Shown: one piece after another, positions 7,661-50,894 of the stretch
Layout: the number at the start of each line of letters is the position of its first letter
How positions within the stretch are numbered: the stretch's first letter is position 1
NCBI GenBank assembly: GCA_041650915.1
Contig: JBAZKE010000001.1
Span: 251,284 to 315,283 of the forward strand
Length of the DNA stretch: 64,000 nucleotides
Direction: 5' to 3'
Source: Patescibacteria group bacterium
GTDB lineage: Bacteria > Patescibacteriota > Patescibacteriia > UBA10025 > JAHIVO01
Notes under the pieces: generated by a model
Database searches by the model: none
What the model was told of the DNA's origin: nothing
Seen by the model: the letters and a program-made list of their open reading frames with translations, nothing else
Program-made: the position numbers and the translations under genes

Positions 7661-7694
7661 ATTTTAGAGGTTAAGAGAATACTTCAAAACTAAG

Positions 7695-22843: not shown

Positions 22844-23827
22844 CTATGGCGTACCGTATTTTTTATCGATTTCTTCGAATGTTGTTTTCGAAATGCTGCC
22901 GATCGCCGATGTCAGCTCGTCCATGTTTTCGCCGCGCGTCATGATGCATAGCAGGTACGGATGGCTAGGGTAATACACGATGCCGCAATCATGGAGTTGC
23001 TTGGTCCCGCTGCTTTCTGCGCCCACGACGCCAAACTTACTTGCGACTTTTATCGTATCAGGCAGCCCGGCCGCTAAACCGTAGGTGAAGCTTGACTGGC
23101 TCAAGAGTTCCAGCGCTTGTTCCGACATGCTTCTGTTCAAGTAGGAGGCGTTATACAGGATTCGGAAGAGTGATGCATACGCCTTGACGCTGACAAAGTC
23201 TTCTGGCGTTTCGGGCCCGATTGTTGTCAGCCCTAGATCCAGGTGTATCTGCTGGATCTTGTTATCTCCGATGTTGCCGGCCAGCATTTCAAACGCCAGA
23301 TTGTCTGACCGGACAATCATCATGCCGATCAGTTCTTGCACGGAGTAGGATGACCCCGGTGTCAGATATTCGCTTGCATTCTGGCTTGCAGGCGGGTCTG
23401 CGTTCACCGTTAGCATTTCTTGGAGAATCGCAGGGTCGCTTTCCGCCATTTTGAAATACGCCATCATAACGGGCACTTTCAGGAGGCTTGCTGGCTTAAA
23501 ATTTTCCCGTTCATTGATGCCGTACCACGGCCCGTTATTGAGATCCCGGTAATACATTGAAATGTGGCGGATTGAACTTCCCGTTTTCAAATCATCAATT
23601 ACTTCCTCAATGGCGTATTTGAAGCTTTTCAGGTCAGTTGATTCCAGCCCTGAATTGATTTCACATTCGAGCAGGGGATTGATGAACTGGTATCCGCCCT
23701 GACGGACCGAGACGCCTTGATGGGTCGTTGCATCGTTGTTATCCAGAGCCGCATATCCAAACCAACCTATTACCATGCCGATACAGCACAGTAGTATTGA
23801 ATAGATAATGATGCTCCGCCGTTTCAT
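22844..23827 (-). CDS. class A beta-lactamase-fold serine hydrolase (beta-lactamase/PBP-related), membrane-anchored
   Basis: SxxK (PASLLKV), SDN (VRSDNLAF) and a KTG-like KFG motif in the right order and spacing. N-terminal TM helix. Confidence 0.5.
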   Translation of the reverse strand: MKRRSIIIYSILLCCIGMVIGWFGYAALDNNDATTHQGVSVRQGGYQFINPLLECEINSGLESTDLKSFKYAIEEVIDDLKTGSSIRHISMYYRDLNNGPWYGINERENFKPASLLKVPVMMAYFKMAESDPAILQEMLTVNADPPASQNASEYLTPGSSYSVQELIGMMIVRSDNLAFEMLAGNIGDNKIQQIHLDLGLTTIGPETPEDFVSVKAYASLFRILYNASYLNRSMSEQALELLSQSSFTYGLAAGLPDTIKVASKFGVVGAESSGTKQLHDCGIVYYPSHPYLLCIMTRGENMDELTSAIGSISKTTFEEIDKKYGTP

Positions 23828-24055
23828 ACACTACCAGTATACCGTTAGTGTCATGCTAGCACAAATTTTTTAGTGAGAAGTTCATTAGCGAGTTTGCAAC
23901 GTATATAATGTGAGTTTTTTAGTGTTCGATATAGTGGAAACGTTAAGAAATTGATTTTTCCCCCAAAGTGTGTTACAATAGTAAGGTATTAAATGTAAAA
24001 AAATAATGATTTTCGGGTTGTAAATACCCATTATTTTTTAGTATACAAGTCATTG

Positions 24056-27000
24056 ATGCAGGCAGATCAAATGCCAGCGCGCCAAAAAAAGAAAAAAATA
24101 ACCGGTAACATACCAGTGCGGCAGAACCGCAAAAAAACGATCGCAACGCAAAAAAAGCGGTCGGCTTGCCGCGTGTCGGCTGTCAGCTCCCGTTCAGGAG
24201 CCGCTAAACAGAATCAAAAGAATCGAACTCGAACAGCCGTGGGGTTTTATGGGCGATTTTTTGCTTTTTTAAACTTAGTAACCGGCTTTATCCGCGCGTA
24301 TCGGCCACTTATTATTGTCGCGCTTGTCGTCACGGCGACTGCTGGTTTATTTTATTTTTATTACCAGAGCACACTGGCTGCCGCGGCGCAGTACGTGATT
24401 GACACGCAGGCTGAGTGGGAAGCAGGCGAGTATTATCCGAACACGGTCGATACAAAAACAACTGCCGATGAAATTTCAATTAAACCAGGCGGCGGCGGCA
24501 CATGGGACGGCGATACGACCGGATTTCTCACTGACACCGCGGGTTATGAATACTGGTCGTACGACGGCCCGTCATACGGCGCTGACCTGACCACGGACGG
24601 CACATACATTTACCAGATCCTCGGCAACCGCAGGCCGTACCTGTTCCGCTACAATCCGGAAACGAATACATGGAAGCAGCTTGCTAATGCGCCGACTTCT
24701 TTTTATTACGGCGGTTCGATTACCTATGATGCGCATACGAAGAGCATCTTTGCCATTAACGGCGGAGAGCAGAACGAGACGGAACAGGCGACTAAGCACA
24801 TGTTCCAGTATGACATTGCTTCTGACACGTGGTCCAAATCAACTGACGCGCCGGATACGTTCGGCCTTGGTTCTTCAATCACGTCCAACGGCGCGGGCAA
24901 ACTGTTCGCGGTCCGCGGCAGGAATACCGACGAGCTGTGGGAGTACGACATTGATGATGAAACATGGGACCAGAACTATTCCCAGCTGCCCACGCCGTAT
25001 TATGTGTACCAGACCAATGGCCAGCCGCTCGAATTTGTGAATGAGCAGTACAGCGACGGGGAGGGCGACCACTGCACTCAGGGCTGCCTATTCACGCTGT
25101 ATGGTGGCGGCAACCGGAATTTTTTCCGTTTTGATATTGCCGAAAAAATCTGGTACCACACGACGCCCGTTGACCTGACTATCCCGGCCGCTCTTGGCGG
25201 CGTGAACTATGGATCGTCCTTCGCCTATGACAGCGACCGCGGCAATTTATTTTTGCTCCATGGCAATACCCAGTATCCGGCCACGACAACCATGGGTGAT
25301 AATTTTTCCACGTATGACGTATCTGCGCAGGACTGGGATGACGCGCCTGAAGACACGCCGGACGCGCCCGGATGGGTCACGTACGGCGGCGCCATGGTGT
25401 ATCTGGACGACTACGTGTATGCCATGCAGGGATATAATGGTTCTAGGCCTGGTTTGTGGCGGTATGACGCGGCAAACGGCTACTGGGATTCCATTTCCAC
25501 GCCGGACGTGGCAAACGGATCAAACCCAGCGCTTGGCCAGGGCACCCAGGGCAGCGGAGGGGAGAACGGCCACCTGGTATATGTTCCCAGCGGCACATAC
25601 TGTGCTGACGCTGGCGGGTGCCTGTATTCTTTCAGGGGCGGCAATTCAACGAATTACTGGCGGTATAATGTCGACGCCAAGACCTGGACTACCGATCTTT
25701 CTGTGGAGAATTTCGGAGCGTTACAGCAGGGTTCTTCGTTCTGCTACAACGGCGCGAACAGGATATATGCGCTACATGGCGAAAGTACACTTACATTTTA
25801 CCAGTATGAAATCACTGGTGAAGGCGATGATGATGAGGACACCTGGCAGGTGCTGACCAGCATGCCCGCAGACCATAGTGATGCTGATGATTATCCGGAC
25901 GCCTCTGCGAATGCGTCATACGGTTCTTCGCTTGCATGCATGGGCACCACGGTGTATGCGCTTAAAGGAGGGACTTCAGCGAGCGGAGCCAACCATTTCT
26001 TCAGTTATAATGGAGCGGCATGGACGGATTTGGAGCCATTGCCCCAGCGCGCGTACCTGGGCGCAAAGCTCGTTACAGTACCGTACGACGCGGGGCATAC
26101 AGAATGGTGCGCTGACGCGTCGGGTTGCGTATTCGCTTTTGCCGGAAACATGCGCGGCGACTGGTACCGGTATAATATCGGAGCGAACACCTGGACCGCG
26201 CTCACTGGCGACAATCTACCTACCGCGACTTATTATACGGCTTCATTGGCATACGACGGCCAGGGGAACATTTACGCGACTGACGGTAATTATGACACCA
26301 ACATGTGGAAGTACGAGATCAACGGGGATGACGGCACCTGGTACCAGATTGCGGATCTGCAGGCGCGCGTCGGCTACAATAACGCCCTTGCATACGACAG
26401 CGACAATAACGTGATGTACTTCCAGCAGGGCTTGGGCACGACAACGATAAGCCGGTTTACGCCGACGCCTGACGATTATATCGCATCGGCAACCTGGATT
26501 TCAGAGCCGCTTGATCTCGGGTATGTCAATTCGTTTTCAACACTCGGATATTTAGTTACGGAGCCGGACGATTCAGCGGTAACATTCCAGACCAGGACCT
26601 CGACAGACAAAGTGTCATGGTCTGACTGGGAAAATCTCGGGCTTTTGGACGCGATTGAGTCGGATGCGGGGCAGTATATCCAGGTTAAGGCGGTTTTGGC
26701 GGCATCAACTGACGGCGGCGATACACCGACTATAACGAGCATTACAGTGAATTACGACAAGGACGGCACAGCACCTGATAATCCTGATGTTGACGGGTAT
26801 GCTGATTCCACCGAAGCGACGGAAATTACTTCGGGCGCAGGCAACTTGTACCACTATACGAATCCGTACTTCGAGTGGGACGCTGCAACGGACGATTCCG
26901 GCATTGCCGGCTACTACGTGCGGTGGACTGACGATGAATTGGATGATCCCGATGAAAGCGAGGATTATTTCCAGACCGGCACCTCGTACGAAGTGAATAC

Positions 27001-30000
27001 GGTGATGCAAGAAGCGGACGGCCCGTATTTCCTGCGCATCGCGGTCAAGGACGATTCGGGAAATGTTTCAACTCCGGAAACCGCGTTTACCTACAATTAT
27101 ACCGGGGTTAATACCGCGACAGAAGCGGTGTGGGACGATCAGGCGGATTTCGAGGACGGGGAGACTGAAACGAATATCAAAACCGATGCGAACGGGGGAA
27201 CGAATATGACGCTTGATCCGATCAGCCCCGGCACGTGGATGGACTTGCCTGCGTCATTCGGCACTGCCGGCTATAACCATACCTCGTACAACGACACGTC
27301 GATCGCCTGGGACGGCGATGATACGATATATGCATTACGTTCGGTCAATTCGCAATATTTCCATAAATACACCATTTCAACAAAGACATGGGAGCAACTT
27401 GCAAATACCGGCGTGGCGGCGTACACTGGCTCGGCAATCGTGTACGTGCCTGACGGAACCACGGCTAACTGCACTGATGACGGCGGATGCGTCTTTGCCA
27501 CTATGGGCAACGGCACCGGATTCCGCAGATACGATGTCAATGCCAATGCGTGGACGGCGCTCGCTTCCGTGACGCTCTCAGTCGGCAATGGCGGCGGATT
27601 GATCTGGACGGGCGGCGACTACATCTACGCTTCCCGCGGCCAGGGCACCGTCACTATGTACCGCTACGATATTGACAGCAATGAATGGGACGATAACGCG
27701 GCGCCAGACCCTGATTACGCGTTTAATTATGGCGCGGCGTACAGTTATGTGCCAAACGGAAATTACTGCCTTGATTTGCAGGGCTGTATTTTTGCCACGC
27801 GTGGCGGCACTTCAACCCACGTGTACCGTTTTGACATACAGGGAGGTTCTTGGTCATTTCTGACCGCACTGCCGTCAGCATCGCCGCCCAAGGTGAATTA
27901 CGGCGCGACCATGCAGTATCACGATGGGTTCTTGTACTATATTGCCGGGTACTATTCGACTGATTTCCTGAAATACGACATTGCCAGCGATTTTTGGTCT
28001 GCGATGCCTGACCTGCCCACCACCCATTACTACGGATCCACGAATAATCTGGTGTACGATACTAGTTCGGACATCATGTATACGCTGCGCGGTTCGGCTG
28101 AATACAGTTTCCTGAGTTTTGACGTGGCGGAAGACGAGTGGCGCAACCCGGCAATCCCGCACGGCAGTACGACCAATGGTTTTTATTATGGCGGCGTGGC
28201 TTACGACGGGGATGACACGTTATATATTGCGCGCGGAAATGCCGGCAACATGGCTGATTTTTATAAATACACCATATCCACGAAAACCTGGCAGAATCTG
28301 CTGGACGTGCCGATGCGCATGAATACCGGATCCGATTTGATTTACGTTGACGGCAAGGTGTATGCGCTAACTGGCGCGCCGCCGTACGGCGAGGTATATA
28401 GCCGGATGTACGAATACGATCTTGAGACAGGTTTTTGGACTAGGAAAGGCGATCTGCCTGCTGCAGTCGGTGATGGCGCAAAACTGGTTTGGGACGGCAA
28501 TAATACTATTTATACTGCGCGCGGCGGCGCAACGGCAAGCTATACGGTGTATTCATATAAAATATCAGGAGCAGCGGGTGCAGGACAGTGGACGACCCAG
28601 GCAGAAAATGTGTTTGGCAATGCCACCGTATACCAGGGCGCATGTTCGGTATGGGATGGCGGCACCAAGCTCTATTTGATCCAAGGGCAGAATTTATCGA
28701 ATATCCTGTTTTGCAATCTTTCCACGGATGGCGACGGCAATGGCACGTGCGATTGGCAAGCGGATACGCTCACCAACCCCTCCGTCGGGATTCAGTACGG
28801 CAACGCCTGCGCTTTTTATGACGGTACTCCTGATGATTTAATTTTTATACCACGCGGGAATACAAATACCACAGATTTTCTTGTGTATAATGTAACGGAT
28901 GATACATGGGAGACTCGCACGCTGAATAACTTTTATTATGGCGGCCGTCTCGTGACCGGACCGGACGGAATTTTATACGGCTTCCGCGGGTATAACACCT
29001 CAACCATGGACCGGTACGTGCAGCAGACTGCAACGACCAGTTTTCAGCGTACCGGCACCTGGACATCACCAATCGTAACTGCGACGGATATATTTGATTT
29101 TGGAGGGTTCGAGGTAAACGATTCCGAAGAAGAAAACACCTCATTAACGTATGAAACGCGGACGTGTTCTGACGCCGGCTGTGCCGCTGACCAGGGAGAC
29201 GCGCACTGGTCGGACTGGGACGAGGTGTCCAACGCGCGAACGATAGAAACTACGGATTACTATACGGTAGATTCCACGCCGGCAACGTACATCCAGGTCC
29301 GCGCCACCTTCAATTCAGACCGCGTGTACACCCCAACAGTAAACGACTTTACCTTGAGCTACTATATTGACGGCACTGACCCGGACAATCCGGCCGCGCC
29401 GGTTGACGGGTACACATCGAGCGCAAAAACAACGACGATTGATAATAACGACTGGACAAACGATGCGACCCCATACTTTGGATGGACTGCGTCTGATGAT
29501 GCGGGCGGCATTGGCATTGAAGGATTCTATGTGTATTTCGGCACGGACGAGACCAAAGATCCGGTGGATGACGCGGCTGACCCGACCAACCTCGCCTATG
29601 ACAACAGCACGAACTACTATGAGGTTAATGATGATGGCACGACTGGTTCATGGAACGCGGCAACGCAGAGCAGCGATGCGATTACTGACGGCGATTACTA
29701 TTTGCGCATCAGGACCAAGGACTTAAACGGCAATGTAACTGATAGCGCAGTGGCCGCATTTACATTCCTTATTGACGAGAGCGTGCCGAATAATATCACC
29801 GACCTGCAAGTTGGGGATTATATGTCTGCGGAAGATGATTTTGATTTTACTTGGACTGCGGTGAATGATGAAGGCTCGTCAGGCATTGAACAGTACTGCT
29901 ACCATACTGGTTCATCGGCCGATACGTGTGTTGACGAGGGCACGATCTGCAGTGGTGGCACCTGCCTGGTTGAAAACGTCCCGCACTACCAGACGCGCGT

Positions 30001-32974
30001 CAATACGTTTTATGTGCGTGCGGTCGATGAAGCCCTGAATCCGGCCGCGTCATATGCTTCAACGGGGTATTTTTATACCGGCGGCCCGCCGGAACCGCCC
30101 GGAAGCGTGACGGTTGATCCGCTTGCGAGCGTGAATAACAACACGTTCACGATTTCTTGGGATTTGCCAACGACCTGCCTTGGTTCGACGCCATGTTCCG
30201 CGAGCGATATTTACCGCTATTGCTATACTATTAATGAAGAGCCGAGCTCGGAAACATGCGGTGCCAATTATAGCGGCGATGCAACTCCTTCGCCGGATGG
30301 CGGATGGACGACTGAAACTCAGACCTCAAGCCGCCTCCTGCCTGACTTTTCCGCCGCTACCCTGCAGGGCGAAAATATCGTTTATGTAGTGGCAATGGAT
30401 ATTGTGAGCAATATTGATTATTCCAATTATACGACTGCAACGTACGACTTCACTTCCACCGCGCCTGGCATGCCCGCGAGCATGGAGGCGACTGATACGT
30501 CTGACCGCACGACCAATAAGTATTCAGTCGTGCTGACGTGGGATGAGCCGGAAGATGTGGGTAGCGGCGTTGAGTCGTACAAGGTGTACCGCTGCGAAAG
30601 CGATTGCGAGAATCCGTCCACGGTGGATGACCCGCCCTCGAATTATACGAATATCGCCGAGGTGAATACGCTTGGTTATTTGGATACCAGTTTGGACAAT
30701 ACCATTACGTATTCTTACTTCGCGCGGTCGACCGGCACGGGCGGCACGATTTCCGGCAATTCCGCCGTGGCTGAAATAAAACCTGAAGGAAAATTCAAGT
30801 ACGCGCCAACTATCAGCGGCGCACCGGCAGTAACCGCGTACATCCGTTCCGCTTTGGTCGAGTGGCTCACCTTGAATGACCAGGACCAGTACGGCAACGT
30901 TATCGAACACTACGCCTCGTCATACGTGCAGTACGGAACAACGACCGCTTATGGCGAGGAAGACGGTACATCTGACCTGACGGACGAGCATTCGGTCACT
31001 CTGACAAACCTGACGCCGGATACCACGTACCACTATCGGTGCAAGTGGGTTGACCAGGACGGCAATGAAGGCTATTCATCTGATTATACGTTCACGACCA
31101 AGGGAGCGCCGTCAGCGCCGATTAACCTCGCGGTCGATCCGGAATCGAACACTGTGAATAGCTTTGGTTTTTCCTGGGACGCGCCGACTGATGAAGGCGT
31201 GACGGTCGCCGGGTATTACTATTCCATCAATAATATCCCAAACGAAACGAATACTACAAATATCGAGGAAACGAGTATCGAGGCATTCGATGCAGCGACC
31301 CAGCAGGGAACGAACACATTCTACGTTGTCGCGATCGATGACGGCGGCAATATCAACTACGCAAACTACGCATCAGTTGATTTCGAGGCGTATACAGAGC
31401 CGCCCAGCGAGCCCCAAGCCGTTACCATCACTGATTCGTCTGACCGCGATGCAAAGCGGTATTCGATAACTCTGACTTGGGACCCGCCCGAGGGATACAC
31501 AGCGGACGATGAAATATACTATACGATATATCGTCGGGAGGCAGAGGCAGACACTGAAGCTGCTGGCGCCGGCATTGCAAAAGCCGCGGCGGATGACCTG
31601 GAAGAGATTGCGACGATCACCTCGACCGGGTATCTTGATACCGGCCTGGACAGCTCAACGGAATATTTCTACCAGGTGACGGCTCGTGACAAGGCGCAGG
31701 CAACCTCGGATCCGACTGACATTGTTTCCGAAGTGCCGGAAGGGCGCTTTACCCAGCCGCCTGCGATCACCGAGAATCCCGTTGCAGTTTCCGATTCGTT
31801 TGCGGCCACGATTACCTGGCGGACGGAACGTGTCGCATCCTCGTTTGTCGATTTCGGCCTCACCAAGACGGACTGGACCGAGGAGCAGGGGACGGCTGAC
31901 ATGGTTGAGGAGCATTCGGTGCGGATTACCGGCCTGAAACCGGAAACGACCTACTTTTACCAGGTAAAGAGCATTGACGTTGATGAAAACGAGGCATACT
32001 CAAACGTATACTCGTTTGTCACGCTTGAAGCGCCGCGGGTGCTTGAGCTCGACGTGACTGATATCAAGCTGTTTGACGCTATCGTCACATGGGATACCAA
32101 TAAAGAAACGACTGCGGTGATCGAATACGGTACGACCACTGACTACGGGATGACGTATACCGATGTCACTCTTTCGTATGCGCTGACGCACACAGTCAAG
32201 CTTGATCATCTGGATGACAGCCAGACGTACCACCTGCGGATCAACGGCCAGGACCGTTCCGGCAATCCGATACAGTCGGATGACTATTCGTTTACCACTT
32301 TGACATTCCCCGAAGTATCCGATATATCATACGTAAACAAATCGGAGGGCCAGACGGAAATTTTCTGGAAAACGAACGTACCGACCACTTCCGAGGTGGA
32401 GTACTATAGCGACCAGATTGCCCCCAAGACCCAAGGCAATACGGCGCTTGTTACGGAACACGTGATTCTGTTGTACGGGCTGGAAGACGCGACTACGTAC
32501 CAGTTCAAAGTGCGCGGCTCGGATGAGTTCGGCTATGAGGCCGTGTCCGATGAGCGCGAGTTCACGACGCTCGAGGACACCACGCCTCCGGAAATATACG
32601 GCGTGCAGTCCGAGTCAAATACGATCGGTTCAGGCGACGCGTCAAAAATCCAGATTGTCATTTCGTGGAAGACGAATGAGCCGACCACGTCGCAAGCTGA
32701 TTTCGGCGTTGGTTTGGGCGGTTCTGACTATTCGGACCAGACTGAAGAAAACGCTGAGCTGGTAATGGACCATCTGGTGGTTATTTCCGACCTTGCGCCC
32801 GCAAAGACGTACCATTTCCGGGTCGTATCAACTGACAAGGCGGGGAACCAGACGAAATCAGGATCGCATACGGTGTTGACTTCACGGAAGCGCGAGTCAT
32901 TCCTGCAGCTTATCATTTCCAATCTGGAAACGACATTTTCGTGGCTCGGCAATGTCGGTTCCCTGGCAAAGTAG
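24056..32974 (+). CDS. giant (~2970 aa) membrane-anchored surface protein with multiple Kelch-like beta-propeller blades and many FN3-like domains
   Basis: Basic cytoplasmic N-terminus (K/R-rich), one TM (LIIVALVVTATAGLFYFYY), then long arrays of Kelch-like repeats (YGGS...W..Y, FRFDIAEKIWYH, WRYDAANGYWDS, YRYNIGANTWTAL...). Interspersed and C-terminal FN3-like domains (YHYRCKWVDQDGNEGYSSDYTFTT, YFYQVKSIDVDENEAYSNVYSFVT, YHLRINGQDRSGNPIQSDDYSFTT, YHFRVVSTDKAGNQTKS). Start set at the first ATG after the TTG given in the track. Confidence 0.75.
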   Translation: MQADQMPARQKKKKITGNIPVRQNRKKTIATQKKRSACRVSAVSSRSGAAKQNQKNRTRTAVGFYGRFFAFLNLVTGFIRAYRPLIIVALVVTATAGLFYFYYQSTLAAAAQYVIDTQAEWEAGEYYPNTVDTKTTADEISIKPGGGGTWDGDTTGFLTDTAGYEYWSYDGPSYGADLTTDGTYIYQILGNRRPYLFRYNPETNTWKQLANAPTSFYYGGSITYDAHTKSIFAINGGEQNETEQATKHMFQYDIASDTWSKSTDAPDTFGLGSSITSNGAGKLFAVRGRNTDELWEYDIDDETWDQNYSQLPTPYYVYQTNGQPLEFVNEQYSDGEGDHCTQGCLFTLYGGGNRNFFRFDIAEKIWYHTTPVDLTIPAALGGVNYGSSFAYDSDRGNLFLLHGNTQYPATTTMGDNFSTYDVSAQDWDDAPEDTPDAPGWVTYGGAMVYLDDYVYAMQGYNGSRPGLWRYDAANGYWDSISTPDVANGSNPALGQGTQGSGGENGHLVYVPSGTYCADAGGCLYSFRGGNSTNYWRYNVDAKTWTTDLSVENFGALQQGSSFCYNGANRIYALHGESTLTFYQYEITGEGDDDEDTWQVLTSMPADHSDADDYPDASANASYGSSLACMGTTVYALKGGTSASGANHFFSYNGAAWTDLEPLPQRAYLGAKLVTVPYDAGHTEWCADASGCVFAFAGNMRGDWYRYNIGANTWTALTGDNLPTATYYTASLAYDGQGNIYATDGNYDTNMWKYEINGDDGTWYQIADLQARVGYNNALAYDSDNNVMYFQQGLGTTTISRFTPTPDDYIASATWISEPLDLGYVNSFSTLGYLVTEPDDSAVTFQTRTSTDKVSWSDWENLGLLDAIESDAGQYIQVKAVLAASTDGGDTPTITSITVNYDKDGTAPDNPDVDGYADSTEATEITSGAGNLYHYTNPYFEWDAATDDSGIAGYYVRWTDDELDDPDESEDYFQTGTSYEVNTVMQEADGPYFLRIAVKDDSGNVSTPETAFTYNYTGVNTATEAVWDDQADFEDGETETNIKTDANGGTNMTLDPISPGTWMDLPASFGTAGYNHTSYNDTSIAWDGDDTIYALRSVNSQYFHKYTISTKTWEQLANTGVAAYTGSAIVYVPDGTTANCTDDGGCVFATMGNGTGFRRYDVNANAWTALASVTLSVGNGGGLIWTGGDYIYASRGQGTVTMYRYDIDSNEWDDNAAPDPDYAFNYGAAYSYVPNGNYCLDLQGCIFATRGGTSTHVYRFDIQGGSWSFLTALPSASPPKVNYGATMQYHDGFLYYIAGYYSTDFLKYDIASDFWSAMPDLPTTHYYGSTNNLVYDTSSDIMYTLRGSAEYSFLSFDVAEDEWRNPAIPHGSTTNGFYYGGVAYDGDDTLYIARGNAGNMADFYKYTISTKTWQNLLDVPMRMNTGSDLIYVDGKVYALTGAPPYGEVYSRMYEYDLETGFWTRKGDLPAAVGDGAKLVWDGNNTIYTARGGATASYTVYSYKISGAAGAGQWTTQAENVFGNATVYQGACSVWDGGTKLYLIQGQNLSNILFCNLSTDGDGNGTCDWQADTLTNPSVGIQYGNACAFYDGTPDDLIFIPRGNTNTTDFLVYNVTDDTWETRTLNNFYYGGRLVTGPDGILYGFRGYNTSTMDRYVQQTATTSFQRTGTWTSPIVTATDIFDFGGFEVNDSEEENTSLTYETRTCSDAGCAADQGDAHWSDWDEVSNARTIETTDYYTVDSTPATYIQVRATFNSDRVYTPTVNDFTLSYYIDGTDPDNPAAPVDGYTSSAKTTTIDNNDWTNDATPYFGWTASDDAGGIGIEGFYVYFGTDETKDPVDDAADPTNLAYDNSTNYYEVNDDGTTGSWNAATQSSDAITDGDYYLRIRTKDLNGNVTDSAVAAFTFLIDESVPNNITDLQVGDYMSAEDDFDFTWTAVNDEGSSGIEQYCYHTGSSADTCVDEGTICSGGTCLVENVPHYQTRVNTFYVRAVDEALNPAASYASTGYFYTGGPPEPPGSVTVDPLASVNNNTFTISWDLPTTCLGSTPCSASDIYRYCYTINEEPSSETCGANYSGDATPSPDGGWTTETQTSSRLLPDFSAATLQGENIVYVVAMDIVSNIDYSNYTTATYDFTSTAPGMPASMEATDTSDRTTNKYSVVLTWDEPEDVGSGVESYKVYRCESDCENPSTVDDPPSNYTNIAEVNTLGYLDTSLDNTITYSYFARSTGTGGTISGNSAVAEIKPEGKFKYAPTISGAPAVTAYIRSALVEWLTLNDQDQYGNVIEHYASSYVQYGTTTAYGEEDGTSDLTDEHSVTLTNLTPDTTYHYRCKWVDQDGNEGYSSDYTFTTKGAPSAPINLAVDPESNTVNSFGFSWDAPTDEGVTVAGYYYSINNIPNETNTTNIEETSIEAFDAATQQGTNTFYVVAIDDGGNINYANYASVDFEAYTEPPSEPQAVTITDSSDRDAKRYSITLTWDPPEGYTADDEIYYTIYRREAEADTEAAGAGIAKAAADDLEEIATITSTGYLDTGLDSSTEYFYQVTARDKAQATSDPTDIVSEVPEGRFTQPPAITENPVAVSDSFAATITWRTERVASSFVDFGLTKTDWTEEQGTADMVEEHSVRITGLKPETTYFYQVKSIDVDENEAYSNVYSFVTLEAPRVLELDVTDIKLFDAIVTWDTNKETTAVIEYGTTTDYGMTYTDVTLSYALTHTVKLDHLDDSQTYHLRINGQDRSGNPIQSDDYSFTTLTFPEVSDISYVNKSEGQTEIFWKTNVPTTSEVEYYSDQIAPKTQGNTALVTEHVILLYGLEDATTYQFKVRGSDEFGYEAVSDEREFTTLEDTTPPEIYGVQSESNTIGSGDASKIQIVISWKTNEPTTSQADFGVGLGGSDYSDQTEENAELVMDHLVVISDLAPAKTYHFRVVSTDKAGNQTKSGSHTVLTSRKRESFLQLIISNLETTFSWLGNVGSLAK

Positions 32975-33044
32975 CGAGGCATATTGTGCAGTAGTGATGA
33001 GCCCTTTCTACATTATTGCGGTATTTTGATGATGAGCGGTGTTT

Positions 33045-33053
33045 TGCTATAAT
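33045..33053 (+). promoter_or_regulatory. extended -10 element TGcTATAAT, 10 nt upstream of a tiny leaderless ORF preceding the ABC transporter pair
   Basis: tttTGcTATAATaacatccatcATGgcaaga. Confidence 0.4.
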
Positions 33054-33063
33054 AACATCCATC

Positions 33064-33120
33064 ATGGCAAGAGCATTTCGGCCTAAGACCGCCCGTGATA
33101 TATCAGAAAAGACTAGCTAG
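33064..33120 (+). CDS. tiny 18-aa leaderless ORF (MARAFRPKTARDISEKTS); possible leader peptide, coding status unproven
   Basis: ATG 10 nt after the -10 element. Basic peptide. Ends ~50 nt before the ABC ATPase gene. Confidence 0.2.
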   Translation: MARAFRPKTARDISEKTS

Positions 33121-33171
33121 TGCAGTTAACGTTTACAGCTTATTATCCACGAGTAGAGTATCGAAGACCAG

Positions 33172-34050
33172 ATGTTTGGCAGAAAAAAGAAAAAAACTGA
33201 AGCAGTATCCGCCGCCCGGAATTCAGGGGCAGGTATGGCGGCGCCAGCAAAAAATACAGATGGAATCCAGCAGCAGAAAGCTCCTGATGCAACTTCGTCA
33301 GGCATTGGAAAACCTGGGGAGATAAAAACGGCTGAGCTGCCCGAAGAACAAAAAAAGCCGGTTATCCTGCTGGAGCGTGTCAATAAAAGTTTTGACCTGG
33401 GAAAAACGGTCGTCCAAATTCTGAAAGACATCAACGTGCAGATATTTCCGCGCGAGTTTATCGTTATCCTCGGGCCGTCCGGAAGCGGCAAATCAACGCT
33501 CTTAAACACGCTTCTTGGGCTCGAACCCCCGTCAAGCGGACGTGTTGTCATGAATAATATCGATATTACTCGGAAGAAGCAGGACAAAATAGCAAAAATC
33601 AGGTACGGATTGTTTGGCATCGTATTCCAGCGGCCAGAGTGGGTACGGTCATTAAGCGTCGTGCAAAATGTCGCATTACCGCTCTCAATTAACGGGACAG
33701 AAAAAGATAAACGGATGCGTATCGCGTGGGAAAAGTTGAAGCTGATCGGCATGGATACTCATGGCAAGTACTTCCCGACGGAATTATCTGGCGGCCAGCA
33801 ACAGAAGGTGACTTTGGCGCGTGCATTGGTAAATGATCCGCAGGTTATCATTGCCGACGAGCCGACTGGCAATCTAGACAGCGCTTCAGCGGATCGCGTT
33901 ATGGATCTGTTTAAAAACTTGAATGAGAGGTTCCATAAAACCATTATCATGGTTACCCACAATATCGATTACGTGCGGTATGCGTCCCGGACCATTTATA
34001 TCCGTGACGGAAAAGTCATCGAGGGAAGCGAGCAGTTTTTATCGGGATAA
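33172..34050 (+). CDS. ABC transporter ATP-binding protein, MacB/LolD/FtsE-like, with a ~65-aa low-complexity N-terminal extension
   Basis: Walker A GPSGSGKSTLLN, signature LSGGQQQKVTLARAL, Walker B IIADEPTGNLD, H-loop VTHN. Confidence 0.85.
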   Translation: MFGRKKKKTEAVSAARNSGAGMAAPAKNTDGIQQQKAPDATSSGIGKPGEIKTAELPEEQKKPVILLERVNKSFDLGKTVVQILKDINVQIFPREFIVILGPSGSGKSTLLNTLLGLEPPSSGRVVMNNIDITRKKQDKIAKIRYGLFGIVFQRPEWVRSLSVVQNVALPLSINGTEKDKRMRIAWEKLKLIGMDTHGKYFPTELSGGQQQKVTLARALVNDPQVIIADEPTGNLDSASADRVMDLFKNLNERFHKTIIMVTHNIDYVRYASRTIYIRDGKVIEGSEQFLSG

Positions 34051-34065
34051 GAAACGACCGGCAAT

Positions 34066-35313
34066 ATGAAGATAGGGTTTACCGTCTTTTTATCAGCGAC
34101 GAATTTACGGCGCAGGAAGCTGAGGAGTTTTTTGACGATCGGCGGCATGGCAATCGGCATTGCCCTCGTAGTATTCCTCGTGTCGCTCGGTTTCGGGCTG
34201 CAGCGGATGATTGTCAGCCAGATCGCGAATGTCGAGGCGCTCACCATTCTTGACGTGTCAAAAGGCGAGTCAACGCTTCTTGCATTGGACAAGGATACGG
34301 TTGATTCGTTCAAAGATTTGGACAATGTGGATAACGTGAGCCCGTCACTCTCGCTCTCCGGCCAGATTACGCATGCCGAGTCAGTCACCGATGTGGCGAT
34401 TTATGGCATTGAGCCCCAGTTTCTATCCATGGAGGGGATCAAAGTAAATTATGGAGCAGAATTTTCAAATGCGACAGCCCAAGAAATTATCGTAACGTCA
34501 ACTGCCCTGAATCTGATCGGGCTTGGTGCGCCCGAAGAATCTGTGGGAGCTGAATTGCTCCTGAAGATGCTTGTTCCACAGAAGATTGAGGGCACTGAAG
34601 AAGAGGAATTGGTGGCAAAAGAAGTAGCGGTTACAATCAGCGGAGTAATCATAGAGGATGATGAGTTAACCCTCGCGTATGCGCCGTTGGAGTTTTTAAC
34701 TTCGCTTGGCTTTACGCCCAATTACAGCGCGGCAAAGGTCAAGGTGGATGATAAAGATGCTGATTATGACGTCGCAAAGGTAAAAGTAACGGACGAGTCA
34801 AAGCTGCCTGAGGTCCGCGCACAGATTGAGGCTATGGGGTACCAGGTTGATTCCGTCGCGGATACGGTCGGACAGATTGACCAGATTTTCGTCATTTTTG
34901 AAATCGTAGTTGCCGGGTTTGGCGCGATCGCATTGCTGGTTGCCGCTATCGGTTCGTTAAATACATTGACCGTATCTCTCTTGGAACGGACGCGTGAGAT
35001 CGGCCTCATGAAGACCCTTGGCGCGACCTCGGGAGACATCCTGCGCTTATTTTTAGTAGAGTCAGTTCTCATCGGCGTGACCGGAGGCATCGCCGGCATT
35101 TTATTGGGCATTGGGACTGGCAAGTTGGCCAATACCGGCATTAATTTCCTCGCTAGCAGGCTCGGCGGGGAGTCAGTTAATATTTTTAGTACGCCGGCAA
35201 TTTTTATCGCGATTATTTTAGCAATTATTTTAATTGTAAGCGTCATAACCGGCCTGTATCCTGCACGCCGTGCAGGCAGGATCAATGCCCTTGACGCATT
35301 GCGATACGAATAA
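34066..35313 (+). CDS. ABC transporter permease, FtsX/MacB-type, with a periplasmic domain
   Basis: N-terminal TM, large extracytoplasmic domain, C-terminal FtsX-like 3-TM bundle with LLERTREIGLMKTLGATSGDI. Confidence 0.8.
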   Translation: MKIGFTVFLSATNLRRRKLRSFLTIGGMAIGIALVVFLVSLGFGLQRMIVSQIANVEALTILDVSKGESTLLALDKDTVDSFKDLDNVDNVSPSLSLSGQITHAESVTDVAIYGIEPQFLSMEGIKVNYGAEFSNATAQEIIVTSTALNLIGLGAPEESVGAELLLKMLVPQKIEGTEEEELVAKEVAVTISGVIIEDDELTLAYAPLEFLTSLGFTPNYSAAKVKVDDKDADYDVAKVKVTDESKLPEVRAQIEAMGYQVDSVADTVGQIDQIFVIFEIVVAGFGAIALLVAAIGSLNTLTVSLLERTREIGLMKTLGATSGDILRLFLVESVLIGVTGGIAGILLGIGTGKLANTGINFLASRLGGESVNIFSTPAIFIAIILAIILIVSVITGLYPARRAGRINALDALRYE

Positions 35314-35322
35314 CTAACGCAT

Positions 35323-35997
35323 ATGCCGCCAAAAAGTTCACAGACATTATTTGCCCAGAAAAAACGGCGGGTCATCGGGGAGATGATCCGAAAGGCGGAA
35401 TTGAAGAACAAGAACGCCTGGGTTTCGATTCACCGCTCTTCAAAAGAAGACATGATTACGTATGAGAGCAAAGGTTTTGTCGTTTCGATCAATGGGAGCG
35501 GGACGCTTGCCATGGACCATGCCCAGTGCAAAGAAGCGGGGCTGTTGTCCGCATACGTCGTTGGTCACGGCGGCATCGTGATCAATGGCGGCAGGTCGTC
35601 CGGGATCATAGCGGCGTCGTCACATGCGGCGGGGCCGCATAAAATCGGGATCGTTTTTCCCGAGATCGAAAAGGAGGCGGATGATGCGGGATCCAAGGCG
35701 CTCGTCAATTCGCCGCAACCCAGGAATGAACTTTTAAGCACGTGCGCTCCGATCATCGTGATCTTCCGCGGCGGGCTCGGGACGCTGATGACGCTCCTGC
35801 GGTCCATCGTACATATCAAGAACAGGCCGTATCATCCTGACCAGCTGCCCCAGATGGTTTTTATCAGCAATTACTGGATCGGGCTTCTGACGACCCTAAT
35901 GAACATGGGTACGCTTCCCCGCGAGTTTATCGTCGCTTTGCATTTTTTTGATAGTGCACAGGATATTATCAACAAAATTCCTTCGCAGGAAGGATAA
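35323..35997 (+). CDS. SLOG-superfamily Rossmann protein (LOG/TIGR00730 or TIGR00725-like, DprA/Smf-related fold)
   Basis: IIVIFRGGLGTLMTLLRSIV resembles the LOG PGGxGTxxE motif. Glycine-rich YVVGHGGIVINGGRSSGIIAA N-terminal nucleotide-binding-like segment. Assignment by motif only. Confidence 0.45.
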   Translation: MPPKSSQTLFAQKKRRVIGEMIRKAELKNKNAWVSIHRSSKEDMITYESKGFVVSINGSGTLAMDHAQCKEAGLLSAYVVGHGGIVINGGRSSGIIAASSHAAGPHKIGIVFPEIEKEADDAGSKALVNSPQPRNELLSTCAPIIVIFRGGLGTLMTLLRSIVHIKNRPYHPDQLPQMVFISNYWIGLLTTLMNMGTLPREFIVALHFFDSAQDIINKIPSQEG

Positions 35998-36009: not shown

Positions 36010-36480
36010 ATGCCAATGAGCGAGAGCAAGAAAATAATCATAATAATCGTTTCTTCGGTTGTCGGTTTAGGCATTATCATCGCCGGGGTAGGATTTTTTA
36101 TCCTTTCAAACAGCGAGCCGAATGACAATGGGTCCAATGAGGTGATTCCGCCAGCGAACACGGCGTCAAGCAACACCAATAGCATCGAAAATGTGAATAA
36201 CGCGCCGGCCATCGCGACAAACAGCGAAATAAGCGTTGAGGGCACTGTATTTATAAAAGGGTATTCGACTCCGAGCGAATCGTATGGCGTACTGACGACT
36301 GACGGGAATGAGATCGGCCTTGGGAAATATGATTCCATGAAAGAGCAGTTTCGGCCGTATATCGGGGATAAGGTAGCGGTTACGTTCAGCAATGTATGCA
36401 GAAGCACCAATGCGGACTGCTGCAAGACAGTTTGCTTCTATTGTGGTACAGTAAAATCGTGGGAACCGCTTGATGAATAG
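36010..36480 (+). CDS. small membrane-anchored protein with a Cys-rich C-terminus, unknown function
   Basis: TM KIIIIIVSSVVGLGIIIAGVGFFIL, S/N/T-rich linker, C-terminus ...CRSTNADCCKTVCFYCG. Confidence 0.4.
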   Translation: MPMSESKKIIIIIVSSVVGLGIIIAGVGFFILSNSEPNDNGSNEVIPPANTASSNTNSIENVNNAPAIATNSEISVEGTVFIKGYSTPSESYGVLTTDGNEIGLGKYDSMKEQFRPYIGDKVAVTFSNVCRSTNADCCKTVCFYCGTVKSWEPLDE

Positions 36481-36557
36481 GGGCAGGGAGGAAACTGCCT
36501 GCAGGATGCCCGGAGAAGCGGTGTTACTAAGCATTGAGAGGGGATACCAGCATACCG

Positions 36558-36941
36558 ATGCCCGAACAGAAAAAGATACTTATCGTCGAGGATGAACAGG
36601 CGATTCGCCAGGCACTGCGCAAATCGCTGAGTGCAACGGAGGGCATCGCCATCTATGAGGCAGAAAACGGTGAAAAAGCGCTTGAGATGATTGCCACAAG
36701 CGCGCCTGATTTGATTTTACTTGACGTCATCATGCCGAAGATGCACGGGATTGACATGTTGAAGACATTGCGCACCGGCCAGCAGCATCGGGACATACCG
36801 GTCATCCTGCTGACCAATTACGCGGATGACCCCAAAGTTATCGAAGCGGTCAAGAATGGCTTGTGCGAGCTGATGGATAAAACGAAGTGCAGACTCGATG
36901 ATGTTGTAGTCAGGATAAAACAAAAACTGGGGGTCGCATAA
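36558..36941 (+). CDS. stand-alone response-regulator receiver domain protein (CheY-like), paralog 1
   Basis: KILIVEDEQAIRQALRKSL...APDLILLDVIMPKMHGIDML (acidic pocket plus phospho-acceptor Asp). No output domain. Start moved to MPEQKKILIV. Confidence 0.8.
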   Translation: MPEQKKILIVEDEQAIRQALRKSLSATEGIAIYEAENGEKALEMIATSAPDLILLDVIMPKMHGIDMLKTLRTGQQHRDIPVILLTNYADDPKVIEAVKNGLCELMDKTKCRLDDVVVRIKQKLGVA

Positions 36942-36990
36942 CATCGACCTAAGTAAGAGTACTTACAATTGTTAATGATTCCATTATTGT

Positions 36991-37218
36991 ATGGACAAGC
37001 AGGGACAACAGCCGACCGAGGCGCAGAAAAATCTGATTTCCACCGTTTCGCATAAGTTAAAAGGCCCATTGACCACTATTAACCTCTATACTGAAGCGTT
37101 GCTGTCGGGAAGCGTCGGTAATCTAAGCGATGAACAGAGGCAGTATGTCCAGGAGGTGCATGATGCAAGTAAAAAAATGGTTGTGTATGTGAAAGACCTG
37201 AAGAATATTTTTAATTAG
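36991..37218 (+). CDS. orphan HisKA/DHp-domain fragment (75 aa) with no HATPase_c domain
   Basis: H-box LISTVSHKLKGPLTTINLYTEALL fits the HisKA pattern SHELKTPLT. The protein ends 40 aa later. No kinase ATP-binding domain anywhere in the cluster. Confidence 0.55.
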   Translation: MDKQGQQPTEAQKNLISTVSHKLKGPLTTINLYTEALLSGSVGNLSDEQRQYVQEVHDASKKMVVYVKDLKNIFN

Positions 37219-37251
37219 ATTCATTGCTGGATGATTGATTGAATAAACTCT

Positions 37252-37629
37252 ATGGTCGGACAAAAGAAAATACTTATCGTTGAGGACGACCAGTCAGTAC
37301 GGGTTGTGCTGGGAAATGAATTCCGGAGGATGGGGTACCAGATCATTGAAGCGGAAAACGGCGAAGCGGCAGTTGCGTTAGCACTTGCCGAGCATCCGAA
37401 TCTGATTCTGCTGGATGTCATCATGCCGAAGATGCACGGCATGGACATGCTCCGCAAGCTGCAGGAAAACGAGTGGGGCAAGAGCGTGCCGGTCGTTTTG
37501 TTGACGAATTTTTTTGATGACCCGCGCGTTATGGAAGCGGTGAAAGAAGGCCGGTGCGAGCTCCTCAGCAAATCTGAGGCAAAGCTGGAGGATATCGTGA
37601 ATAAGGTGCAGGAAAAAATTGGGGAATAA
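37252..37629 (+). CDS. stand-alone response-regulator receiver domain protein, paralog 2
   Basis: KILIVEDDQSVRVVLGNEFRRMGYQIIEAENGEAAVALALAEHPNLILLDVIMPKMHGMDMLRKLQ. About 55% identical to paralog 1. Confidence 0.8.
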   Translation: MVGQKKILIVEDDQSVRVVLGNEFRRMGYQIIEAENGEAAVALALAEHPNLILLDVIMPKMHGMDMLRKLQENEWGKSVPVVLLTNFFDDPRVMEAVKEGRCELLSKSEAKLEDIVNKVQEKIGE

Positions 37630-37653
37630 CAACGGCTGGCTGTCTATAGCCAT

Positions 37654-38007
37654 ATGCTGAAGGAAAAAAAGATATTGATTGTTGAGGACGACCCGATGCT
37701 ATTGCACCTTTTAGCAAATGGTTTTCGGAAGGCCGGGTATACTGTCTTTGAGGCGGTAAACGGGCACCAGGGCATTGAAACCGCATCACAAGAAAAACCA
37801 TCCATCGTCGTATTGGACATAATCATGCCGAAAGTCGACGGGGTGACGGTGTACAAGGCTCTTCGGGCATCCGGAGCCGTAATTGTCATCTGGACAAACC
37901 TTAGCCAGAAGGAAGTAGAGGCAGCAATCGGCGAATCCGGCATAGATTATCATGCAAAAGCGGAATGTTCGCTCGAGCAACTTATATCGCATATCAGGGA
38001 AATATAA
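37654..38007 (+). CDS. stand-alone response-regulator receiver domain protein, paralog 3
   Basis: KKILIVEDDPMLLHLLANGFRKAGYTVFEAVNGHQGIETASQEKPSIVVLDIIMPKVDGVTVYKAL. Confidence 0.75.
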   Translation: MLKEKKILIVEDDPMLLHLLANGFRKAGYTVFEAVNGHQGIETASQEKPSIVVLDIIMPKVDGVTVYKALRASGAVIVIWTNLSQKEVEAAIGESGIDYHAKAECSLEQLISHIREI

Positions 38008-38132: not shown

Positions 38133-38528
38133 ATGTCTGACAATGTTTTAATCGCAACGCTCAAATATATTGCCATAGAGATCCTGTGGGATATTGTGTA
38201 CTTTCCGATCTGGTGGTATTCGAAAGGCCTCGTACGGATCGGGCGGTACTGTCTCGAGAGCGCTGAGTTCCACGTCTCGAGGCGCCTTGCGCTCGGAGTG
38301 TGGCTGAGGAGCATGTTCAAGCCGATGTACGGCGATTATACGAAAGAGGGCAGAATCATCAGCTTTTTCATGCGTGTCGTCGTACTCGTCTGGAAGCTCA
38401 TTGCGACGGTACTGTGGATGTGCGTGCTCGCACTCATCTTTTTTTGCTGGATTTTATTGCCATTCATCATCGTGTACTACATACTGTACCAGGTGTTTGG
38501 TGTGCCTTTTATTCCCTTCAGCAGGTAG
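38133..38528 (+). CDS. small multi-TM membrane protein, unknown function
   Basis: Hydrophobic, W/Y/F-rich (IEILWDIVYFPIWWYSKGL...LIFFCWILLPFIIVYYILYQVF). No family recognised. Confidence 0.4.
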   Translation: MSDNVLIATLKYIAIEILWDIVYFPIWWYSKGLVRIGRYCLESAEFHVSRRLALGVWLRSMFKPMYGDYTKEGRIISFFMRVVVLVWKLIATVLWMCVLALIFFCWILLPFIIVYYILYQVFGVPFIPFSR

Positions 38529-38533
38529 GTTGT

Positions 38534-41353: not shown

Positions 41354-41746
41354 CTATGCTCCGGTCGCGGACCGCAGGGTGCCGGTGAGGGTTGAGAGGA
41401 TTGCGAATGCTGCGAGCGCGATTACGGTGCCGAGGGCTGAGTACTTGAGTATCTGTTTTGCTTTGGTCACGCGCTCTTCGTTGCCGGCAGCCGTCATCCA
41501 CATGAAGCCCCCGTAGATGACCATCACCACGCCTGCGAGCCCGAGGAAGCCGAGCAGGATTTGCCCGGCCCGGATCACCATGTGCGGCGGCTCCTGGTCA
41601 GGGAGCTTGGTCGCGTCTTTGATTTTATTTCCCGGATCAAATTCAACGCCGAGCGCCGTTTTTACCCTGCCAATGAGAAGGTATGCGCTAAAAGCAGTTG
41701 AGCCAAGCCAGCCGATTGTTTTCCAGGAAATTTTTTTCATACGCAT
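41354..41746 (-). CDS. TrbC/VirB2-like (conjugative or type IV secretion) pilin-family small membrane protein
   Basis: Signal/TM, then GFLGLAGVVMVIYGGFMWMTAAGNEERVTKAKQIL, which matches the VirB2/TrbC pilin core (hydrophobic helix - YxGfxymtsgGnxEkvxkAKxxi), then a second TM. 130 aa. Confidence 0.55.
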   Translation of the reverse strand: MRMKKISWKTIGWLGSTAFSAYLLIGRVKTALGVEFDPGNKIKDATKLPDQEPPHMVIRAGQILLGFLGLAGVVMVIYGGFMWMTAAGNEERVTKAKQILKYSALGTVIALAAFAILSTLTGTLRSATGA

Positions 41747-50891: not shown

Positions 50892-50894
50892 GTT

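Follow-up and report, generated by a model that had tools for sequence, protein, structure and literature searches.

The window analysed here is a stretch of 64,000 nucleotides from the genome of a Patescibacteria group bacterium (GenBank assembly GCA_041650915.1, contig JBAZKE010000001.1, positions 251,284 to 315,283), and we have focussed on a gene for a giant surface protein in it and on the two genes that follow, which code for the ATPase and the permease of an ATP-binding cassette (ABC) transporter. The Patescibacteria account for much of bacterial diversity, and attachment to other cells is believed to be their way of life; to our knowledge, few envelope systems specific to them have been defined. 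Judged from sequence comparisons, this locus is one copy of a three-gene unit that is conserved across Patescibacteria and consists of a large modular surface protein, an ATPase and a MacB-type permease. A homologue of the giant lies directly upstream of the ABC pair in 65 of the 73 related loci for which at least 700 nt of upstream DNA are available. Full-text searches of the literature gave no published description of the giant/ABC unit; in papers on Patescibacteria, large FN3-bearing surface proteins come up, as does "ftsE/ftsX", but each on its own.

The giant protein and the ABC pair

The coordinates of all these features are collected in Table 1. Lys and Arg abound in the N-terminus of the giant; a single hydrophobic segment comes next (hydropathy scan), and from there on the protein is built of Kelch-type and fn3-type repeats, both above the Pfam gathering scores (score/cut-off: Kelch_4 58.6/21.6, Kelch_6 53.7/25.3, Beta-prop_ATRN-LZTR1 79.5/50, fn3 80.1/25, Pur_ac_phosph_N 95.7/30; Kelch_3 was above its cut-off too). 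Internal repeats were mapped by comparing 150-aa segments with the whole protein; self-BLAST of the whole protein gave the identity match alone. Each Kelch-like blade region is followed by a beta module of ca. 230-270 residues, and the two copies match each other (786-1013 against 1639-1904) with 25-38% identity. Further on, an FN3-like block is duplicated (residues 2029-2352 match 2368-2660), and tandem FN3-like domains of ca. 91-100 residues reach the C-terminus, near which Pur_ac_phosph_N, a family of FN3-like fold, matches four stretches. RTX repeats were not found in the giant with Pfam, its best NCBIfam match is a sub-threshold mutarotase-like propeller, and it is without a curated family of its own.

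An earlier reading of this stretch made from the letters alone (the sequence-only reading) had described a giant gene with a basic N-terminus, a single transmembrane (TM) segment and Kelch and FN3 domains, and the open reading frame (ORF), Pfam, hydropathy and the internal repeats all agree with it. Of the checks it had proposed, domain annotation and the co-occurrence of the ABC pair with giant genes came out in its favour. For the propellers, the AlphaFold2 (AF2) model of residues 106-1020, built with 4 usable homologues, is all-beta with a mean predicted local distance difference test (pLDDT) score of 58, too uncertain for a count of blades or propellers. The model of residues 2340-2972 is also all-beta, with a helix at the end and a pLDDT of 86.8.

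The ATPase starts 197 nt after the stop of the giant, and the permease 15 nt after the ATPase, so the sequence-only reading was also right in placing within 200 nt of the giant an ABC ATPase with a low-complexity extension and an FtsX-like permease with a large outer domain (Pfam, TM scan). The catalytic motifs of the ATPase are all intact (Walker A GPSGSGKS, LSGGQ, Walker B VIIADE and H-loop VTHN). Its extension varies in length among relatives and is missing in some of them; the K-rich start MFGRKKKK resembles those of relatives (MPEKKSRDK, MPKKKKQD, MAEEKQKK), which supports the start given in the table as the true one. The permease has hydrophobic segments at residues 23-41, 280-298, 328-346 and 379-397 (TM scan). 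Its C-terminal TM bundle matches Pfam FtsX with 68.9 bits (cut-off 25.5), and the outer domain between TM1 and TM2 matches MacB_PCD with 67.1 bits (cut-off 27) over profile positions 1-206 of 207. The closest solved structures are YtrF (9o9x, 2.2e-30), MacB (5gko and 5lil, 1.6e-25) and Spr0695 (5xu1, 6.8e-22), along with LolF/C/E; the match to FtsX in the PDB is weak (2.3e-05) and involves the TM part alone.

The FtsX bundle, the MacB_PCD outer domain and an ATPase with intact motifs are what defines the type VII ABC (MacB-FtsX) superfamily. By these profile comparisons the system belongs to that superfamily but outside its characterised families, because the NCBIfam models for MacB, FtsX, FtsE, LolC/E and LolD all stay below their cut-offs and a membrane-fusion protein (MFP), an outer-membrane factor, RTX repeats and a six-TM exporter are lacking. 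We rejected an assignment to FtsEX (FtsX models 42.7-54.9 bits against 225-255, FtsE 188.5 against 264.85), also by the partner, as no hydrolase or coiled-coil gene is conserved beside the pair and the conserved neighbour is the FN3-tailed giant. LolCDE was rejected as well (lolCE 72.1 bits against 362, LolD 188 against 307.75, a single permease gene), and so was MacAB-TolC (MacB equivalog 198.7 and 92.6 bits against 966, with the ATPase in a gene of its own). Neither an MFP/HlyD-type domain nor an outer-membrane-factor domain was found by Pfam or NCBIfam in the giant or in the neighbouring genes. Type I secretion of a giant adhesin does not fit a permease of FtsX/MacB type without an MFP, next to a giant with an N-terminal TM segment and no RTX match. 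In annotation, pairs of this kind are easily mislabelled as FtsEX or as exporters of antimicrobial peptides or macrolides.

The gap between the giant and the ATPase gene holds a promoter-like site, and no terminator-like site was found on the + strand of its 197 nt. The extended -10 that the sequence-only reading had seen before the pair was recovered by a consensus scan. In 13 of 23 close relatives the equivalent gap has a -10-like hexamer, preceded by TGn in 10, and the ATPase starts ca. 20-60 nt 3' of it; in the other 10 the gap is 38 nt or less or the genes overlap, and in the closest relative (L081, 76% permease identity) it measures 43 nt. As such hexamers recur in the gaps of relatives, an internal promoter ahead of the ABC pair, beside read-through from the giant, appears plausible.

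The same reading had attached meaning to a leaderless ORF of 18 codons in this gap. The ORF is present, but apart from L084, which comes from another assembly and matches the window with 100% identity across the 11.9 kb that were compared, no counterpart was found in 83 related loci (tblastn with the peptide gave L084 alone), L081 with its shorter gap included, and an ATG ORF of at least 18 codons arises in 46% of shuffles of the gap. With no homologue in relatives and a length within chance, we discarded it as a gene and regard it as a chance feature. Its ATG does lie 10 nt after a good extended -10, as would suit a translated leaderless leader peptide regulating the ABC pair, but against the same absence from the closest and all other relatives and the same shuffles such a role is extremely improbable.

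Table 1. Positions of the giant gene, the ABC pair and other features in the window (position 1 is the first nucleotide of the 64,000)
Feature	Position	Strand	Evidence
Giant surface protein gene, 2,972 aa	24056..32974	+	ORF; Pfam Kelch, fn3, Pur_ac_phosph_N; full-length homologues
Basic, predicted cytoplasmic N-terminus (residues 1-73) and single TM anchor (ca. 74-105)	24056..24370	+	Hydropathy scan
Kelch-like blade region 1 (ca. residues 110-790)	24383..26425	+	Beta-prop_ATRN-LZTR1, Kelch_4/6/3; internal repeats of ca. 50 aa
Beta-sandwich and FN3-like module, copy 1 (residues 786-1013)	26411..27094	+	Internal repeat
Kelch-like blade region 2 (ca. residues 1021-1640)	27116..28975	+	Internal repeats matching region 1; Kelch_2 below cut-off; TIGR03548-like matches
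Beta-sandwich and FN3-like module, copy 2 (residues 1639-1904)	28970..29767	+	Internal repeat
FN3-like array with internal duplication	29768..31855	+	Pfam; internal repeats; AF2
Family-wide C-terminal module (residues 2601-2972), four FN3-like (Pur_ac_phosph_N) domains and tail	31856..32971	+	Homologue coverage; Pfam; AF2
Amphipathic helix at the extreme C-terminus (residues 2948-2970, SFLQLIISNLETTFSWLGNVGSL)	32897..32965	+	Motif in tails; AF2; hydrophobic moment
Promoter-like site 5' of the giant gene, TTGATT-17-TACAAT with TG before the -10	23951..23979	+	Consensus match only; 1 found against 1.2 expected in shuffles
Promoter-like site in the giant-ABC gap, TTGATG-16-TATAAT with TG extension	33026..33053	+	Consensus scan, 10/12 matches
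18-codon mini-ORF MARAFRPKTARDISEKTS, probably not a gene	33064..33120	+	ORF list
ABC ATPase (MacB/LolD/FtsE-like nucleotide-binding domain) with low-complexity N-terminal extension of ca. 63 aa	33172..34050	+	Pfam ABC_tran 113.6 bits; motifs
MacB-type (type VII ABC) permease, four TM helices, extracytoplasmic domain of ca. 238 aa	34066..35313	+	Pfam; TM scan
SLOG/LOG-like protein, 9 nt 3' of the permease	35323..35997	+	Pfam Lysine_decarbox, LDcluster4
156-aa protein, N-terminal TM, Cys-rich C-terminus	36010..36480	+	Sequence
NHL/FG-GAP protein	385..3744		
FecR/fn3 protein	3817..6087		

Recurrence of the unit and of the C-terminal module

The permease was aligned with 23 homologues, and one genome per species of bacteria and archaea was then scanned with two peptide patterns, taking flanks of 10 kb. 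The scan gave 468 relatives, of which the best 80 loci were kept, and the counts given here are those of the 80 and no measure of phylum-wide prevalence. The window proteins were located in the loci by tblastn, and four more loci (L081-L084) were fetched separately. In 65 of the 80 loci, the gene that ends immediately before the ABC gene, on its strand, codes for a homologue of the giant's C-terminus. In 3 more this homologue is likewise upstream but cut by the contig end, and in 5 it is found elsewhere in the locus: with a phosphoglycerate-mutase-like gene inserted between giant and ABC gene (L029), just downstream of the pair (L030, L031, L034), or upstream on the opposite strand (L033). No homologue was found in the available DNA of another 3 (L038, L065, L070), and in the last 4 the upstream DNA is too short to judge. 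That the MacB/FtsX pair partners the giant had been suggested by the sequence-only reading, and this suggestion came through the test set for it, namely whether the pair is conserved elsewhere without a giant beside it.

By record title, the loci of the scan come almost entirely from Patescibacteria (Kerfeldbacteria, Saccharibacteria, WWE3, Berkelbacteria, Dojkabacteria, Andersenbacteria, CPR3 and Moraniibacteriota), and matches to the C-terminal module also named Woesebacteria and Magasanikbacteria. Some third-party records of metagenome-assembled genomes, and one "Bacillota" record (L062), have non-patescibacterial titles, mostly "uncultured Gammaproteobacteria", that look doubtful. Adjacency holds down to 32% permease identity, with upstream proteins ranging from ca. 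940 to 3,000 residues. At 46% permease identity and above, the giant aligns full-length wherever the full gene is present (38-56% identity over ca. 2,450-3,100 positions), with the exception of L024, in which the C-terminal ca. 1,300 residues alone align; at 32-40%, the upstream protein has 940-2,200 residues and aligns by its C-terminal part alone. In most of these distant loci, 0-75 nt separate the stop codon of the large gene from the conserved core of the ATPase, which is suggestive of an operon. The genes 3' of the permease (SLOG/LOG-like, small TM protein and receiver-domain genes) are conserved within local clades only, hence the core of the unit is taken to be three genes. Altogether, we consider it very probable that the giant and the ABC pair are functionally linked. 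The presence of the unit in many classes of Patescibacteria, where it can take up to 9 kb in genomes of ca. 1 Mb, makes it likely to be important to the cell surface.

The giant itself is conserved very unevenly. Database searches with parts of it gave proteins of at most ca. 1,100 residues, mostly partial, and the full-length homologues were taken from the fetched loci. Across 14 full-length relatives, the mean identity to the window giant is 13% in the cytoplasmic N-terminus and TM region, the least conserved part, mostly 33-55% in the body and 64-74% in the last 370 residues. These last ca. 370 residues are also the only part common to the whole family, with N-terminal heads that vary by lineage, being Kelch propellers in the window giant and repeats of other kinds elsewhere. 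Among 44 homologues compared, residues 2601-2972 are covered to at least 93% in 42, with 27-78% identity (in the remaining two, the gene is cut short or broken up in the assembly), and the Kelch regions are restricted to a closer clade plus two distant loci. Foldseek searches of the C-terminal module against the PDB returned generic FN3 arrays only (gp130, titin-associated proteins, ROS1, GhpA).

The module finishes in a tail, SFLQLIISNLETTFSW in the window giant and SVLTIILNTLKKVFGF in Saccharibacteria. The extreme C-terminus reads TSRKRESFLQLIISNLETTFSWLGN in close relatives and IIGRASDSVLTIILNTLKKVFGF in Saccharibacteria, where the stop follows directly, and the forms of WWE3 and Berkelbacteria are intermediate. 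Nearly all of the 68 tails listed have the motif S-[FVA]-[LF]-x-[LI]-[IV]-[IVL]-x-x-L-x-x-x-F-[SG]-[WF], or a recognisable variant of it, at ca. 0-10 residues from the stop, and many end right after F-G-F/L. In the AF2 model of the C-terminal part the tail helix takes up model residues 610-631, with a pLDDT of about 55-67. Its hydrophobic moment is 0.36-0.42 and its mean hydrophobicity ca. 0.2-0.36, too polar for a TM call in the hydropathy scan. We also tried and rejected a tripartite C-terminal sorting signal of the LPXTG or PEP-CTERM kind, as the tail is below the TM threshold and its basic residues come before the helix and not after it. The motif is absent from every other surface-protein ORF of the window, including the NHL, FecR/fn3 and DUF11 proteins.

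Since the conserved part of the giant is there, what matters to the ABC pair is probably the last ca. 370 residues with the terminal helix, and not the Kelch region. Several distant homologues have no TM anchor but a cleavable-looking A-x-A signal peptide at the start, and still retain the tail; in L047, L050 and L064 such a signal peptide precedes a different head (VSWDGG...ANWSD repeats) without Kelch blades, and the C-terminal module and tail are kept. There are also lineages with two tail-bearing proteins per pair, either in tandem ahead of it (L072, 290-8779) or flanking it, one on each side (L068, 5011-17364), where one transporter may serve more than one client. The signal-peptide homologues and these double loci both support the tail as a universal contact on the cell side.

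How the pair may act on the giant

Type VII ABC systems are established as mechanotransmitters that act on extracytoplasmic partners, and their working principle is illustrated by FtsEX, which moves EnvC or PcsB, by LolCDE, which grips and expels lipoproteins, and by MacB, which works as a bellows, according to a study of FtsEX-EnvC (PMC7668044) and a review of MacB (PMC5985334). By analogy, Sec would export the giant and the N-terminal TM segment would hold it in place, or in some lineages cleavage of the signal peptide would free it; the docking site for its C-terminal FN3 array and terminal helix would be the extracytoplasmic domain of the permease dimer or its stalk. As ATP is bound and hydrolysed on the cytoplasmic side, the permease would pass the effect on to the tail, much as FtsEX drives EnvC or PcsB and LolCDE grips its substrate. 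This would anchor the giant at the cell surface and alter its conformation or tension. The pair would be transcribed by read-through from the promoter of the giant and probably, in this genome, from the internal promoter as well, with no role for the mini-ORF. We see the chances of this model, in which the pair docks on the conserved tail and transmits force to it, as evenly balanced; any specific output, be it anchoring, tensioning or release, we rate far below the model itself.

Several points weigh against docking of this kind. The case for a contact between giant and permease comes from the conserved gene neighbourhood alone, and the helix has moderate confidence in the AF2 model. With the anchor at the N-terminus, the C-terminus could be far from the membrane, in which case docking would need the giant to loop back. 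The clients of the MacB family that we know of are small molecules, peptides, lipoproteins and coiled-coil regulators, and none of them is an FN3-tailed giant. Nor do all of the loci conform: in two from Saccharibacteria (L038 and L070) it is a phosphoenolpyruvate-utilising enzyme that stands upstream of the pair, and the available DNA of L065 has no giant. Finally, cultivated Southlakia epibionticum, which appears to lack the giant, has a MacB_PCD/FtsX permease and ATPase of like architecture (SEML1_0053/0054), a putative counterpart, beside a tRNA gene; its annotation lists no PF16656 (Pur_ac_phosph_N) domain in the proteome, and disruption of SEML1_0053/0054 gives a growth defect (PMC10633639). 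Provided that these genes are orthologous, a reduced, host-associated lineage would have a working pair with no giant beside it. Two other candidates in that genome were set aside as counterparts, SEML1_0890/0891 (highlighted in PMC10633639), which is small and of unrelated architecture, and SEML1_0385-0387, which adjoins a histidine kinase and a response regulator.

There are other ways to explain a transporter at this place. One would be a machine for biogenesis or release that handles the C-terminal helix once, as LolCDE does its substrates, extracting the tail from the outer leaflet for handover to the wall or surface layer or for shedding, so that the tail would be a sorting signal. The arrangement seen here, of varying heads on a single conserved C-terminal tag with machinery of its own, indeed follows the logic of C-terminal sorting, the tail stands at the very C-terminus and is confined to the giant among the surface-protein ORFs of the window, and LolC/E/F are among the solved relatives of the permease. 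However, a tail below TM hydrophobicity and without the layout of motif, TM segment and basic cluster is not what sorting would lead one to expect, four conserved FN3 domains exceed what a signal needs, and no processing enzyme is conserved in the neighbourhood, all of which makes this explanation unlikely in our view. It is quite unlikely, too, that the pair is an efflux or export pump that takes a lipid, a peptide, a wall precursor or a toxin from the membrane or from a periplasm-like space, with the giant as a stand-in for the MFP adaptor or as a conduit across the wall. Here the best solved sequence matches (YtrF, MacB and Spr0695) speak in favour, as does the gene order, which is adaptor-ATPase-permease in macA-macB and in yknX-yknY-yknZ, and the pair of like architecture in S. 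epibionticum still matters for growth with no giant next to it. Yet neither the giant nor its neighbours have an HlyD/MFP-type domain, FN3 arrays are not known as conduits, and conservation in the giant is found at the C-terminal end, not in the N-terminal TM segment, which would be on the pump side and is poorly conserved.

It might also be that the genes are neighbours without a shared function, inherited in this order, and that the pair acts independently, for example in resistance to antimicrobial peptides. Small patescibacterial genomes could keep gene order by descent, and the adjacency does have exceptions; but it is still there at 32% permease identity, when all other flanking genes have been exchanged, rearranged loci put the giant on the other side of the pair and not away from it (L030, L068), and conservation of the giant is strongest next to the ABC gene. 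We regard mere inheritance of the order as very unlikely.

Returning to docking and mechanotransmission, the recurrence of the three-gene unit across ultra-small Patescibacteria suggests an undescribed, ATP-driven surface machine. The fullest version of the idea would be a lineage-wide machine in which a MacB-type ABC motor takes hold of the terminal helix of the giant and spends ATP on anchoring, tensioning or repositioning it. Contact with hosts or particles would then be served by an energised tether or winch whose conserved FN3 stalk carries exchangeable heads, be they Kelch propellers or other repeats. We offer this version tentatively and consider it doubtful; if true, it would be the first case of a giant surface protein coupled to a mechanotransmitter of the type VII ABC superfamily. 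What would be new here, we infer by analogy, is a mechanotransmitter of this superfamily with a new class of partner. Should the pair act on the tail, the principle of mechanotransmission in FtsEX, LolCDE and MacB would cover clients of a new class, and a helix of ca. 20 residues, four FN3 domains and one transporter would provide a testable handle for studying how large surface proteins are displayed or operated.

Neighbouring genes and likeness to known systems

The giant sits among housekeeping genes, namely several aminoacyl-tRNA synthetases, RecO, Tgt, ClpB, subunits of an F-type ATP synthase and a transfer-messenger RNA (tmRNA). Directly behind the permease, the SLOG/LOG-like gene keeps its position in the 15 closest loci of the genome scan and in L081-L084, and the gene of the 156-aa TM protein in 11 close loci. 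Both are clade-specific and packed behind the permease and may be accessories of the unit; as further conserved partners downstream, they and the receiver-domain genes were rejected, all being clade-specific. There are three single-domain CheY-like receiver genes (36534..38007, +, starts at 36534, 37252 and 37654) and among them a stand-alone gene for a 75-aa HisKA domain (ca. 36991..37218), an arrangement suggestive of a split phosphorelay; in the closest relative (L082), there is a PAS histidine kinase in this place as well. On the other side, divergent from the giant gene, lies a gene for a protein of class-A beta-lactamase fold (Beta-lactamase2, 144.9 bits; 22844..23827, -), with a weak homologue at the same position in L007.

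At the start of the window, the NHL/FG-GAP and FecR/FN3 proteins are where the earlier reading had put them. Elsewhere, the tmRNA gene (9128..9537, -) has a predicted tag peptide that is unusually long, with 26 residues (AKSFVSKVKTAFAQAFAVPSFAPVVA), and a tRNA-Asp gene is found at 7694..7769 (-). Two TatD-family DNase paralogues of 277 and 279 aa stand in tandem (50058..51734, +). The ClpB-like ORF of 999 aa with a GTG start (38300..41299, +) is probably over-extended, the call in L084 being 921 aa (38534..41299), and just downstream of it L084 has a called gene of 128 aa with a T4SS_pilin (PF18895) match, at ca. 41354..41740 (-) of the window.

Among the closest known systems, FtsEX with its partners EnvC, PcsB, CwlO or RipC is our working analogy. 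In both cases there is a separate ATPase and a four-TM permease with the outer domain between TM1 and TM2, and an extracytoplasmic protein partner, gripped via a helical element, would be acted on with no solute moved. The outer domain here is larger, however, and of MacB_PCD type, and the partner is an FN3-tailed surface protein of 940-3,000 aa and not a coiled-coil regulator of peptidoglycan hydrolases. MacAB-TolC, YknXYZ, Spr0693-0695 and YtrEF share with the unit the MacB_PCD and FtsX domains and the order of partner, ATPase and permease, and they include the best matches of solved structure. In contrast to MacAB-TolC and MacB-like pumps, the ATPase is unfused, there is no membrane-fusion protein or outer-membrane duct, and the giant upstream is rich in beta structure. 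LolCDE is reminiscent of what we propose in being a type VII ABC system that takes hold of a protein client by its membrane-associated part, at the outer leaflet, and then expels it, but here there is one permease gene and not two, the client part would be an amphipathic helix and not acyl chains, and neither outer-membrane genes nor genes for Lol partners were seen in the window.

Type I secretion of giant adhesins (LapA/LapBCE, RTX) likewise has a giant repetitive surface protein beside an ABC transporter and a conserved, signal-like C-terminal element. It differs in its six-TM exporter, as opposed to the type VII ABC fold, in its MFP, TolC and RTX repeats, all missing here, and in that our giant has an N-terminal TM segment or signal peptide, which points to export by Sec. 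Along similar lines, LPXTG/sortase, PEP-CTERM/exosortase and the C-terminal domain of the type IX secretion system combine variable passengers with one C-terminal tag and cognate machinery nearby. Compared with these sorting systems, the tail of the giant is amphipathic and not tripartite, and the candidate machinery beside it is an ABC transporter and not a transpeptidase or protease.

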